Positions 14,025-47,428 of a stretch of DNA of 64,000 nt are shown in pieces. The position numbers were made by a program, and so were the translations under genes. The DNA comes from Eledone cirrhosa (Eukaryota): assembly GCA_964016885.1 (NCBI GenBank), contig OZ024749.1:48112001-48176000 (forward strand), read 5' to 3'. Numbering within the stretch: position 1 is the stretch's first letter; every line of letters begins with the position of its first letter. The notes beneath the pieces are model-generated. The model was not told where the DNA came from. It made no database searches and saw only the letters and a program-made list of their open reading frames with translations.

Positions 14025-14173
14025 GGGAACAAGTAGGACCCCGTGGGCTGAGCTCAAACCGTTTCGACGGCTAATTCTGGATTAATTAGTCCAGAATTAC
14101 TCACTCTACTACCATAAGTAATGAGTAATGTGCGTTATGGTCAATCTGGTTCCTTACCACATTTCCCTCGTTA
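14025..14173 (+). mobile_element. Fold-back short element, family C (internally deleted copy)
   Basis: Homologous to 29023-29224, 44541-44786 and 47234-47428; lies in (TA)n. Confidence 0.8.
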
Positions 14174-14208
14174 CACACATATATATATATATATATATAT
14201 ATATACAT

Positions 14209-14450
14209 ATTTCGTTTCTGAATTTGTTTAGCAAGATTCTCTATCTGAAAACGTGTGTTAAAACCGATATTGTTATACTTTGGAAAGAACTTTGACAATA
14301 TATGAACAATCATCTGGTTCTCGAACGAACCAACCAACCGGAAATTTATAAATTCCTAAATTTATGAATTTAATTAATAATAAATTGAAGTGAAAGCATT
14401 TGGTGCGTGTGTTTCTTATTGGCAACATGACCCTCCAAAAGTATAACAAT
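14209..14450 (+). mobile_element. Penelope-like repeat, family B, with inverted terminal segment
   Basis: Homologous to 31915-32226 and 43909-44165. The left part is the reverse complement of the family's 3' end (ccaaagtataacaatatcggt...). Confidence 0.75.
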
Positions 14451-14710
14451 ATATATATATATATATTTATATATATATATATATATATATATATATATAT
14501 ATATATATATATATATATATATATATATATATATATATATATATATATATATGTGTATATATATATATATATATATTTATTATATATGTATATATATATA
14601 TGTATATATATATATATATATGTATATATATATATGTGTATATATATATATATATATATATATATATATATATATAATATATATATATATATATATATAT
14701 ATATATTATA

Positions 14711-14926
14711 TATTACCCACTCTACTACCTCAAGTATTGAGTACTTTGGTGCGTTATGGTCCACCTGGTACCTTACCACATTTCCTTCGTTACATATATA
14801 TATATATATATATATATATATATATATATATATTATTTATTATATATTACCCACTCTACTACCTCAAGTATTGAGTACTTTGGTGCGTTATGGTCCACCT
14901 GGTTCCTTACCACATTTCCTTCGTTA
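14711..14926 (+). mobile_element. Two tandem 82-bp partial copies of family C separated by (TA)n
   Basis: tattacccactctactacctcaagtattgagtactttggtgcg...ccttcgtta at 14711-14792 and 14845-14926. Confidence 0.85.
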
Positions 14927-15243
14927 TATATATATATATATATATATATATATATATATATATGTGTATGTATATATATATATATATATATGTATACATA
15001 TATATATATATATGTATATATATATATATATATGTATATATATATATACATATATATATATATATATATATATACATATATATATATATATATATATATA
15101 CATATATATATATATATATATATATGTATATATATATATATATATATATATATATATATGTATACATATATATATATATATATATATATATACATATATA
15201 TAAATACATATACACACACACACACACATATATATATATATAG

Positions 15244-15296
15244 GAGATTCCTGATGATTTCTAAAGAATGAAACATTTCTAGTCCTGTAGAATCTC
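15244..15296 (+). ncRNA. Type I hammerhead ribozyme motif (family D)
   Basis: GAGAUUC CUGAUGA U UUC UAAA GAA U GAA ACA [UUUCUAGUCC] UGU A GAAUCUC: 7-bp stem I, intact core, 3-bp stems II and III, GUA triplet. Confidence 0.8.
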
Positions 15297-16914
15297 ATGT
15301 ATATTAAAACCTTTATACTCTGCTATGTATTAAGTACCTATGTGTGTGTATATATATATATATTTATATATATAAATGTGTATATATATATATATATATA
15401 TATATATATATATATATATGTCTCTATCTGTCTCTCTATCTATAATGTTTCTCTCCATGTCTCATATATATATATATATATATATATATATATATATATA
15501 TATATATATATATATATATATATATATATATATATATATATATATATATATATATATATATATATATATATATATATATATATATATATATATAATGTAT
15601 AAGTTAGGAACTAATTACGGTGTAGTGAGAAGTCGTGTCGTTTTTGTCATTGTTATATATACCTCAAATCTAAATGCCTTTCAATTTACGAGTGAAAAGT
15701 CAATAGTAGGTCATCTGTTTTGAATAATCTAAGATTCAGATGTTAAATTTAATAGGCTCAACACTTCCTGGGCGAAATCAAATGAATGCTTCTGTTTTAG
15801 TGTGATTTATTTAATCGACTTCATATATAACAATTTGTGTCTCTCAAACGAATCTAATAAACATTTTTTTGTATCTTATTGTATAGCATTTTTTTCTTTC
15901 CACACAATACTGTCAGGATGTTATCAAAGCTGCTCTGAAAACGAAAACATTGTATGTTTATTTCTCTAATTCTCTTGCTAACACATTATCATGGTTTTAC
16001 TGCTTTCACTCATGTAGGCATTAGGAAAAAATTATTACAAAATGCATTAGTTGTGAGTGTATATTTAGATTTAGAGTTCAAATTGTAACAAGAATTATTT
16101 TTGAAATGATTTAATTTCATCGATTTCACTCATGGTATATAAAATGTGTTCGATGTACCATTTCTTTTCCTAAACAATAGCGTGTTCTGACATCAATTGA
16201 CTTTAGAATAATATACGTTAAACCTAATAAAGTAAATGGTATAATGAGTTAAATTAATTGAATAATACTATTTGTACTTCATTTCCGATACTACTACATT
16301 GATGATTAGTGATATTTATTATATACAATTTATACGCATATGTAATAAATGTTAAGTGTATGATGCCGAATATTACTTCATTTGCAATTATTGTTGACCT
16401 AAACAACATAATTGTTTCTACTTTAGGCACAAGGCCAGCAATTACCCATGCAATTACTGCATCACCTAAACAACATAATGTGGTCCAGAAATATATAATA
16501 TCAAAATATAATATAATATAATATTTTGCAGTAGTGTACTCGGTGGAGTTCTGAATAGAGTGTTAGCTAAGCGTCTTGTGATGTGTGTGTGTGGGGAGGA
16601 GGGATATATATATGTTTCCTAATTTAAGTAGCGTTTATAACTTAATATGTGTAAACCTGTTCCTTTTAACTAATTGCATATAACAAATTTAAGAAACGCA
16701 ATTATGTCATATTTATCCTTTGCTGTATATATATATATATATATATATATATATATATATATATATATATATATATATATAAGCATATATATATATATAT
16801 ATATATATATATATATATATATATATATATATATATATATATATATATATATATATATATATATATATACATATGATTATATATTTATAAGCATATATAT
16901 ATATATATATATAT

Positions 16915-44192: not shown

Positions 44193-44448
44193 AAAGAGAT
44201 GAAATCGAAAATGCAAATGGAGTCTTATTTTAAGAAAAAAAAAAAAATTTATTTGCTTCCTTTACCGGTTTCAGAATTCTTCTGCTTTTTTCTCACAGTT
44301 TTCTCACAGTGAGAAAAATCACAGACCCTCCATATCAACTCTACTTTTGAAAAGCAGAATAATTGCGAAACCGGTAAAAGAACCAAATAAATATATATAT
44401 ATATTTTTAAAAATAAGACTCCGGTCGCATTTTCTATTTCATCTTTTT
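44193..44448. repeat. Inverted repeat (about 100-bp arms) with HHR-like motif at 44345-44378 (+)
   Basis: gagatgaaat..ggagtcttatttt..tttaccggtttc / gaaaccggtaaa..aaaataagactcc..atttcatct. Confidence 0.75.
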
Positions 44449-44540
44449 TTCTTTATACTTTCACTCGTGTAGGTCACCTCGGTTATTTTTCATTTCGTAA
44501 AAAAAACCCACTTTCTAATATATATATATGATATATATAC

Positions 44541-44786
44541 ACTTAGGATAGTAGAGCGGGTAATAGGTACGAGTAGGACCCCGACGACGGCTGATCTCAA
44601 GCCGTTTCGACGGCTAATTCTGTACAATGAAAAAAAAATGTTGTTTAGTCCAGAATTAGCCGTCGAAACGGGTTGAGCTCAGCCGTCGGGGTCCTACTCG
44701 TTCCTATTACCCACTCTAATACCCTATGCATTGAGTACTTTGGTGCGTTATGATCCATATGGTTCCTTACCACATTTCCTTCGTTA
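44541..44786 (+). mobile_element. Fold-back short element, family C (longest copy)
   Basis: About 85-bp inverted arms plus a unique tail ending ccttcgtta, in (TA)n. Confidence 0.85.
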
Positions 44787-45399
44787 TATATATATATATA
44801 TATATATATATATATATATATATATATATATATATATACATCCATACTTGCACACACGCAAATACATACACATATATATTACTTGTATATGTGTCTGCAT
44901 GTACACACACACAGACACACACATACATACAGACTCCAAAACACACACTTATATATATATAGGTATATATAGGTATAGTACCATTAACATAGTTGGTGTT
45001 ACATGGTATTAATGTTGTATAATATTTAATTTAGTTTCCTCTCGGTTAAAAAAACATGATTCTACTATGAGCTCATTTTCCTATATTCTTGTTGTTACTT
45101 AAGTAATAATAATTATCGTTGTTTAACTTCACGGCAAACTTAAGCAATCAGGTATAGTTATTGTTTTATATTGCGACAAATGCACAGTGATATAGCAGCA
45201 GTGTTATACCACGATATTCATACCATGATTTTCATCATTCGACATACCACTGTGAGCATACAGAATCGTTCAAAGTCACACTCTACATGAGTGTATGACA
45301 ATATACATATATATATATATATATATATATATTATTTTCATATAATTTATTTATATAGTGAAAGAAAACGTTTGAGAACATACATATATATGTATCTGT

Positions 45400-45680
45400 G
45401 GAGGCACGTGGCTTAGTGGTAAAGGTTTTGGTCCTACGATCCTAATGTCCTGGTTTCGTTCCTAGATTGCGTGTTGTGTTCTTGAGCAAAACACTTCACG
45501 TTGCTCCAGTATGCTCAGCTGAAAATGTGTACCACCAATAGGTGGGGGTTTAAACTTGGGATTGGCTGGCGTCTATTCCAGTGGGGTGGGGGTGGGGGGT
45601 GGGGGCTTGTACACTTGTACACGCAATGAAACCAAGATAAGCAGCGGCCAAATGAACCTTTTGGCTTAATACAGACTTTT
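45400..45680 (+). mobile_element. tRNA-derived SINE, family 2
   Basis: A-box GTGGCTTAGTGG, B-box-like GGTTTCGTTCC, then gtgttgtgttcttgagcaaaacact. Confidence 0.7.
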
Positions 45681-47233
45681 CAAATTAATATATACATATA
45701 TACATACATATATATATATATATATATATATATATATATATATATATATATATATATATATATAAATTTAATTTTACATATTATTTATTATTTTATCTTA
45801 TTCACACGATACAGATCATCTTCGCTTTGGCAAATAAACAAAAAAAAAAAAGAAGAAAAAAAACAAATAAATGAAAAAAGAAAAAAAGCAAACAATTTAT
45901 CAGTCGCTTTGTTTCTTAGAATCTGAACTGTTCTGCAGTTTATTACAGTTTTGCTTGAACATCGAACAGCAGAATATCTGGTGCTAGTCATATTTTATTA
46001 ATAAATGACACTCGGCGTCAAAGGGAAGGTGTAGAAGAAATAGTATTGTAGCTTCACACCTTTCTAAACATAAGAAATCAATATTAGTAATAAGACTTTT
46101 TTCCTTCTTTTATTTTTCTGTTTGAAACGAACAATTCTGATGAAAATAAATATAGAAATGAAGAGATATACATACATATATATATATATATATATATATA
46201 TATATATATATATATATATATATATATATATATATATATATTTCTACATTTGTAGTAAACATCTGCATTTGATCGATTTCTATTTGGTACTTTTTGAATT
46301 ACATTGACTGCAGATAACACTGTTAGAGTTTCGCTTTAAAGAGAGACGAAGAAAAAAAAGACTGCTACACAAACGCATAGCTTTCTTCGAATAATATAAG
46401 ATATATAGAGCAAAGCAAGATCTATATATCATTCATATGTGCCGTCTCCCTGTTTCCTTGTTCTCTCTCCTTCACTTACATAAACGTGATATATATATAT
46501 ATATATATATATATATATATATATATATATGTGTGTGTGTGTGTGTGTGTGTATGTATGTATATACATACCCATACATATATAAATAGGTAGGAAAACAT
46601 TCTCTCTTAAATAAAATAATACATTTTACATGTATACTCGAACTGTGAGTTCACAAACGTACATGTAGAATATTTTCGTATTATTTTGTGGATGTATTTA
46701 TCTGTGGATGTATGAAGACATACATATCAATCTATGTGTTTGTGTGATCATGTGCTTACTTATTTAGCATGTGTTTGTGTGTACACCATAAGTTTGTTGT
46801 TATTGGTGTCATTTATTTACAGGACAGTACTGTTCGTCTGATATTTACATAGTAGCTGTGCACTATAATTACTTTATCATCTTCATAATTTCGAACTGAA
46901 CATACCACTACTCAATATATCTAGTTACATTTTATCTTGAAGGCATGGCGCTTCATAAGTGTTGCCGAAAATCAGAACATAACGTCTGCTTCGTGATATT
47001 GACTAATCACCTACAGCTTTATATTCTGAGATAAAAATCACAATAATCTATACACACGTAGATTTGTATATGTATGTATAGACATACATATATGAGTGCA
47101 TATATAGCTATATACACGTAAACATATTTACCCCCGCCCCCCCCCCCCCCACACACATATATATATATATATGTACATATAAATATACCTATACACACGT
47201 GCGTATATATATATATATATATATATATATATA

Positions 47234-47428
47234 TAACGAAGGAGTTGTGGTCAGGAAACAGATGGACCATAACGCACCAGAATACTCAATACTTAGGATA
47301 GTAGAGTGGGTAATAGTAAAATGTATGACCCCGACGGCAGAGTTCAAGCCGATTCGACGGCTATTTCTAGTCCAGAAATAGCCGTCGAGACGGCTTGAGC
47401 TCTACCGTCGGGGTCATGCATTTTCCTA
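47234..47428 (-). mobile_element. Fold-back short element, family C
   Basis: Same ends and hairpin as 29023-29224; (TA)n on both sides. Confidence 0.85.

Follow-up and report, generated by a model that had tools for sequence, protein, structure and literature searches.

Palindromic (TA)n-Embedded Repeats of Eledone cirrhosa as Probable Paired 3' Stubs of a Penelope-like Element with a Hammerhead-Shaped Motif

The 64,000-nucleotide stretch of Eledone cirrhosa DNA analyzed here (assembly GCA_964016885.1, contig OZ024749.1, positions 48,112,001 to 48,176,000 of the forward strand; in the following, the window) contains six copies of a short repeat, Family C, at positions 14025, 14711, 14845, 29023, 44541 and 47234. 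An initial annotation described these copies as fold-back elements that arose by reverse transcription and kept only the 3' half of a hammerhead ribozyme. All six are present where claimed, each within (TA)n. They correspond to the 3' end of a Penelope-like element (PLE) with a 717-aa open reading frame (ORF), which bears out their description as products of reverse transcription. In the reading that we consider quite probable, Family C represents the 3'-terminal 60–140 bases of a PLE similar to those of the Hydra clade, inserted into (TA)n mostly as head-to-head pairs of stubs that likely stem from two separate reverse-transcription events. Family C is a new family of a known kind of retroelement, and the stubs are an ordinary product of it.

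From Short Repeats to a Coding Parent

The exact arm 20-mer GTTTCGACGGCTAATTCTGG occurs 12,982 + 12,954 = 25,936 times in the 3.0-Gb genome, and its backwards control occurs 0 + 0 times. The abundance of Family C is far above chance. Thirty loci retrieved with the 44541 copy as the query, and hence biased toward this query, contain two modules: an inner palindrome with two 57-base arms and an 80-base outer piece. The outer piece is mostly found on one side only; the other side has a precise end between ..CGTTCCTA and TATA. For an unbiased sample, the 20-mer was taken at the 60 positions where it first occurs on contig C1, with position as the sole criterion. Without L064 and L067, which were dropped for their overlap with L063 and L066, this sample comprises 58 distinct loci with 49 head-to-head junctions.

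Two loci of the unbiased sample, L063 and L106, hold approximately 400 bases within the loop. First-look candidates for this piece itself number about 2,950, and it extends upstream into at least 1.5 kb common to several loci; L132 has an open frame with the motifs FLDV..YRKP and VIY..YIG. Searching the genome at the protein level yielded 71,737 first-look candidates; open frames of 784 aa are present in many of them. A TA-targeting miniature inverted-repeat transposable element (MITE) or DNA transposon, the first impression from the short copies, was dropped once longer copies led into the ORF.

The tandem array L146/L147 consists of four copies with a period of 3,531 bp, 99.97% identity and 784-aa open frames. 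Each 3,531-bp unit, to which all unit coordinates below refer, is composed of a 91-nt leader, the 717-aa ORF, a 3' untranslated region (UTR) of approximately 1.15 kb, the inner arm (unit 3394–3450) and the outer piece (unit 3453–3531), which continues directly into the next unit of the array. The left edge of the array reads (TA)n, tail and an inverted copy of the last ~280 nt, and the right edge reads short end (the end of the inner arm) and (TA)n. Inserted copies finish at one of two fixed points, either the short end at unit 3452 (..GTTCCTA) or the tail end at unit 3531 (..CCTTCGTTA). Among 20 copies with an intact ORF, 12 adjoin an inverted copy, the length of which is unrelated to that of the sense copy. 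The insertion architecture of PLEs, with partial tandems that form a pseudo-long terminal repeat (pLTR), an adjoining inverted 5'-truncated copy and a one-sided tail, is present.

Two side observations concern this unit. A small hairpin followed by ACUUU is possible just past both insertion end points, in unit 3453–3512 and unit 1–60 (L146:5818-5877 and 5897-5956). In contigs of run X2 compared with L146:5300-6300, the summed word depth over unit 3377–3546 is ~10–20 times as high as over the immediately preceding 3' UTR, and it exceeds that at the ORF start by a factor of a few hundred; this depth, which is not a copy number, agrees with stubs being far more numerous than long copies.

The Protein and Its Clade

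The translation of the ORF carries HSDKTG, YRDD, CNCPDRSIC (CxCX5C), VIYQ..YIG and CNLCSEE..NKK..CKH (CxxC and CxH around E/N). The reverse transcriptase (RT)-type motifs FDIESYY, SMGA, YRDD and FLDV..YRKP can be read by eye, and RWR stands where the RWK of the clade might be. A 39%-identical homologue has a Pfam GIY-YIG match of 26.2 bits (cutoff 22.6) that aligns to the VIY..YIG stretch of the parent. Atlas neighbor clusters of the ORF combine the domains HTH_animal, RVT_1, DUF8422 and GIY-YIG. According to the sections on the Hydra clade in Craig 2021 (PMC8557442), PLEs of this clade, which have a C-terminal endonuclease, are marked by DKT in place of DKG, a CxCX5C linker, CxxC/CxH around E/N and (TA)n targets. 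All of these features are found in the Family C parent, which also shares the single ORF with a putative C-terminal GIY-YIG, the tandems, the inverted copy and the one-sided tail. Fig. 2 of the same paper shows this arrangement of incomplete tandem units, 5'-truncated inverted copy and single-sided tail, and the part of its text that deals with the tandem and inverted structures and the tail calls them unexplained. The tail is 30–40 nt in the Hydra-clade elements described there and 79–82 nt in Family C.

Three points weigh against this assignment. The ORF was not recognized by Pfam, whether queried as fragments, as the whole ORF or as 22 aligned homologues, nor by NCBIfam or a PDB profile search; because these sequence searches gave nothing, the assignment as RT rests on the motifs read by eye and on the Atlas neighbors. 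Hydra-clade elements are mostly under 3 kb in the portions of Craig 2021 that treat them, whereas the Family C parent has 3.5 kb. The same portions call canonical hammerheads universal in the clade, whereas the parent has the variant UUGAGAA instead of a canonical CUGANGA..GAAA. Judged by its sequence features, the parent is probably a PLE of the Hydra clade.

The Six Window Copies

All six window copies map within unit 3380–3531, that is, to the last 150 bases of the 3,531-bp parent. They are listed here by window position; a fold-back stub as a whole has no strand.

14023..14173, no strand: fold-back stub; left arm inverted, unit 3390–3452, short end at 14023; center near 14086–14095
14023..14173, right arm of the same fold-back: internal deletion; ~11 bases kept, then the tail (unit 3451–3531) with the end ccctcgtta
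14711..14792, plus strand: tail-only stub, unit 3450–3531, 98.8% identity to the parent unit; without hammerhead part or inverted partner
14845..14926, plus strand: tail-only stub, unit 3450–3531, 100% identity to the parent unit
29023..29224, no strand: fold-back stub, older variant with 84–87% identity; tail arm on the minus strand, 29023–29160 (unit 3393–3531)
29162–29216, plus strand: short arm of fold-back 29023..29224; end cctata; GAAA mutated to TATA
44541..44788, no strand: fold-back stub; minus-strand arm 44541–44631 (unit 3385–3474, partial tail), then a 22-base A/T-rich center
44636–44786, plus strand: plus arm of fold-back 44541..44788; unit 3380–3531, complete tail
44655..44694, plus strand: half hammerhead, given as an example; 3' strand of stem II, GAAA at 44665–44668, stem III with GAGCTC loop, GTC, GGGGTC
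44655..44694, same half hammerhead read against the parental fold: predicted cut after 44687; GGGGTC = 3' strand of stem I
47234..47429, no strand: fold-back stub, older variant; tail arm on the minus strand, 47234–47368 (unit 3397–3531)
47368–47429, plus strand: short arm of fold-back 47234..47429; GAAA reads GAGA

The end ccttcgtta, said to be shared by all copies, is indeed found in all six, as ccctcgtta at 14173 and as taacgaagg of the opposite strand at 29023 and 47234. The consensus arm AGCCGTC-GAA-ACGGCT-TGAGCTC-AGCCGT-C-GGGGTC had been given for the family. It is present with few substitutions in the copies at 14025, 29023, 44541 and 47234, the arms of which read ..GTCCAGAATTAGCCGTCGAAACGGCTTGAGCTCAGCCGTCGGGGTC.. 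with substitutions, and is absent from those at 14711 and 14845. The same four copies also contain the GAAA, the 6-bp stem and the GUC of the original description, and each has an inverted copy of the arm opposite a center whose letters are unlike those of the other copies. The stubs 14711–14792 and 14845–14926 have neither a fold-back nor a hammerhead-like part because they consist only of the 82-base outer tail (unit 3450–3531). No window copy extends upstream of unit 3380, and the 5' core lies outside all of them. The complete catalytic core is absent in all six, and without a 5' core they cannot be ribozymes. A scan of the whole window at the Rfam gathering score returned 0 matches.

The stretch between the Family C copies at 14195–14455 is itself a dispersed repeat that sits between (TA)n arrays; matches with 77–95% identity occur in 13 loci that were fetched for other purposes. 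Many unrelated short repeats seem to be joined via (TA)n. One such module, ..CCTTATCGAGCCCTCTTTGGATTTTAGTCTTCAAATTTATTATTATTAC followed by (TA)n, recurs in both orientations beside stubs of Family C and of a sister family described below (flanks of L009, L023, L029, L182 and L191). A diverged relative of the inner arm at L033:1330-1400 departs from Family C chiefly in having A for G at ~10 positions, which may be a trace of RNA editing or decay.

A Hammerhead-Shaped Motif in the Parent

The interpretation of the arm as the 3' half of a hammerhead-shaped three-way junction was borne out by longer parental copies that hold the 5' half. This half does not have the form that the initial annotation anticipated. 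CTGANGA within 0–4 nt of ACGGCTAATTCTGG gave 0 matches in the genome search. The site GGACCCCTGANGA gave 32 matches against 19 for a control, and none of 10 inspected continues into an arm of Family C. Two of these sites, L049 and L047, look like unrelated hammerhead-like sites. Instead, long sense copies read ACCCC-UUGAGAA-[stem II, 54–58 nt]-GAAA-[stem III, GAGCUC loop]-UC-GGGGU. The minimum-energy fold of L146:5703-5812 has the exact hammerhead topology, with UUGAGAA, GAA and C unpaired, stem I formed by ACCCC/GGGGU, stem II, and stem III closed by an A-U pair. This fold and the alignment fold contain the hallmarks of a type I hammerhead in the long copies, namely the three-stem junction, GAAA, an A15.1-U16.1 pair and a non-G at position 17. 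The 5' core reads UUGAGAA in 24, UUGAUAA in 23 and CUGAGAA in 12 of 65 distinct copies, with 6 others; none of the three named sequences is CUGANGA.

A sister family found beside L072 (L072:546-690; L148-L207) has ~2,700 first-look candidates, the same tail and the same hammerhead layout. Its core is UUGAUAA, so that the free core position N7 is G in Family C versus U in the sister family, and its stem II is quite unlike that of Family C (CAGCUAGAU/AUCUAGCUG). RNAalifold recovered stems I, II and III from 10 + 10 copies of both families. One stem II pair exchanges GC and AU across these copies (10 GC, 8 AU, 2 GU). Both families keep the unpaired core segments though the interior of stem II has diverged beyond alignment.

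The parental motif also resembles known ribozymes. The sections of Cervera and de la Pena 2014 (PMC4209133) on variation among PLE hammerheads list U3-A8 in place of C3-G8 as a natural variant, which occurs in the Cercyon elements of Schistosoma mansoni as it does in the Family C parent. The minimal type I hammerheads of metazoan PLEs described there have the same location in the pLTR and a palindromic loop 3 (GAGCUC here), and their opposite-strand motif pairs, 100–700 bp apart, parallel the inverted pairs of Family C. Stem III comprises 5–6 bp in the Family C parent compared to 0–2 bp in these ribozymes. The metazoan non-LTR retrozymes (bioRxiv 10.64898/2026.07.22.740005) are likewise short non-coding hammerhead-bearing repeats derived from PLE pLTRs. 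Retrozymes, however, consist of direct repeats in tandem and carry the ribozyme in full; a Family C stub, whether it occurs as an inverted pair or as a single arm, has only half of one and could not self-cleave.

Several observations speak against a functional ribozyme. The long copy L132:8900-9480 has no hammerhead match in Rfam, even at E ≤ 10, and for the window segment 44500–44800 the same threshold gave only sub-threshold microRNA-like hairpin matches and no hammerhead. The fold of L146:5703-5812 is no more stable than that of shuffled sequence (z = +0.53). C3 stands with A8, an unpaired core combination, in 12 of the 65 distinct long copies, yet these belong to a coding subfamily. Stem II measures 54–58 nt with internal loops, whereas the metazoan PLE hammerheads in the sections cited above have 4–6 bp. 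Insertions end 20 and 99 nt past the predicted cut, and therefore cleavage does not define the ends. The hammerhead likeness could accordingly be a vestige or a matter of chance, with the conserved hairpins acting only as recognition or stop signals for the RT. The missing Rfam match, the unremarkable folding energy, the C3/A8 copies and the absence of an insertion end at the predicted cut would all fit this explanation, as would the flanks outside the core, which are equally conserved between the two families. Yet UUGANAA, GAA and C coincide exactly with the three unpaired segments, and both families keep them while the stem II interior has diverged beyond alignment; the one free core position does vary. 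In addition, U3-A8 is already a published PLE variant, and the motif sits in the pLTR, the usual place of PLE hammerheads. A mere vestige or chance likeness thus appears doubtful, if far from negligible. We regard it as rather likely that the parental motif is, or was until recently, a true hammerhead in which the published U3-A8 variant replaces C3-G8.

Another family embedded in (TA)n (L031-L040, e.g., G000:C3:10277077-10277121) has canonical type I hammerheads, and 18 of 74 scored candidates reach the Rfam Hammerhead_1 cutoff. It has two alternative ends, and the fold-backs in L031 and L037 turn ~45 nt upstream of the ribozyme, not in stem II.

A Sharp Stop Zone in Stem II

In the unbiased sample, 76 of the 98 arm ends at the 49 junctions fall at unit 3387–3399, a zone of 13 bases. 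Of the 49 junctions, 33 have both arm ends within unit 3385–3400, 10 have a single end there and 6 have none. On the fold of L146:5703-5812, this stop zone corresponds to the 3' strand of stem II in its apical stem, together with the adjoining internal loop. The tabulated arm ends, read on the parental fold, therefore bear out the earlier proposal that the inversion takes place inside stem II, and this position of the zone explains why stubs keep only the rear half of the motif. Stubs with a single arm stop at this place as well, at GTCCAG in both L096 and L090. Sister-family stubs, read by eye in 30 loci, stop at the homologous GTTCGG, which follows a conserved TTA, whether they are single (e.g., L178, L184, L195 and L198) or paired.

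The stop point may be a site where the RT halts at the apical stem, or the 5' end of a separate short RNA. Contigs of four public runs compared with L146 gave no RNA cover of the stub region and no ends of molecules; they showed again only the two ends joined to (TA)n, as loose ends. We also considered the stop zone as the main promoter, or start of the full-length transcript, and rejected this candidate: only 1 of 14 long copies starts its upstream partial unit at 3393. These 14 are the ORF-intact copies in which the upstream partial unit starts within the fetched stretch; among the 20 such copies, 5 run off and 1 lacks a partial unit. TTAGTYC of the stop zone does resemble the initiator consensus YYANWYY.

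Origin of the Head-to-Head Pairs

The initial annotation proposed that cDNA snaps back. In this scenario, a single cDNA would fold at the stem II hairpin and prime on itself, so that the palindrome would be one molecule copied twice. The turn zone at unit 3387–3399 in apical stem II is in line with this idea, and many centers can be drawn as loops of 4–6 nt (e.g., ..AATTCT-GGAC-AGAATT..). Centers are also mostly unique, with 27 distinct sequences among 34, and all 38 of 38 are distinct in another set, to which the query-biased retrieval contributed 29 loci. Furthermore, the arms of a copy are nearly identical. Divergence between arms within a copy is 2.7%, versus 6.6% between copies (n = 24), and the arms of one copy share identical non-CpG variants in 24 of 24 cases, from which it follows that both arms come from one RNA source. 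This last observation also counts against priming on separate RNAs, which would need a single source or a burst. What stands against snap-back is the outer ends. A strand that copies itself should mirror its template to the outer end, yet in 43 of the 49 junctions one arm has the short end and the other the tail end, and in 16 of the 49 at least one arm ends outside the zone. In L061, L071, L083, L086 and L110, the arm with the tail falls far short of its partner in length. Stubs without a partner end at the same point, the inverted and sense arms of long insertions are unrelated in length, and another PLE family of this genome turns ~45 nt from its hammerhead (L031). We therefore find snap-back self-priming poorly supported and consider it unlikely.

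The other proposal, that the hairpin propagates as its own unit, would make it a replicating non-autonomous element that is copied whole, either as RNA or as a TA-targeting MITE of the Tc1/mariner type. It would account for the very high copy number, at ~26,000 exact arm words, and for the few centers that recur (ATTCAGTCCAGAAT 5 times) or that form a series differing only in the length of a T-run (L010, L011, L012 and L021). Yet the recurrent center ATTCAGTCCAGAAT occurs on different sequence variants and in different flanks. Since most centers are unique and identical ones sit on different variants and flanks, a self-copying hairpin can be the ancestor of few copies at most. Moreover, the stubs show variants that match those of the long coding copies, their outer ends coincide with the two 3' end points of the PLE, which are seen likewise at the edges of tandem arrays, and no transposase was found. 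The annotation had named symmetric terminal inverted repeats (TIRs) with TA duplications as the mark of a MITE. The ends are instead unequal in 43 of 49 junctions and are end points of the retroelement, not transposase TIRs; a TA duplication is unreadable within (TA)n. Stowaway-like (Tc1/mariner) MITEs and fold-back DNA transposons are likewise small, palindromic, high-copy and flanked by TA. Family C differs from them in that its arms are the 3' end of a retroelement, its ends are unequal and the length of its arms is variable. We judge a replicating hairpin to be highly improbable.

Two separate cDNAs placed head to head are the simplest reading of these data and, as we infer, a better supported one than snap-back. 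When the self-complementary (TA)n target breaks, each of the two broken ends would prime cDNA synthesis on the RNA of the element. One cDNA would begin at each of the two end points, and most would halt at the conserved point in stem II, either because the RT stops or because the RNA ends. The halted cDNAs would then be joined with a few odd bases at the center. More tentatively, a conserved signal in apical stem II (TTAGTCC in Family C, TTAGTTC in the sister family) could be what ends most reverse transcripts ~60 nt after their start, acting as a programmed stop or hand-over for the Penelope RT or marking where a short RNA has its 5' end; we rate this possibility as less likely than not.

Significance

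The mode of insertion of PLEs is still undefined. Family C, with ~26,000 arms, two fixed starts and one sharp stop zone, offers a natural data set for distinguishing twin priming from snap-back. It also reveals a very abundant PLE lineage with a hammerhead-shaped motif that is missed by both the CUGANGA descriptor and Rfam. Stubs of this kind are prone to be misannotated as MITEs or as microRNA hairpins, as the sub-threshold Rfam microRNA matches illustrate. If the apical stem II signal does end most reverse transcripts, the ribozyme fold would double as a brake that makes tens of thousands of inert half-ribozyme stubs and fixes the turn of the fold-back.

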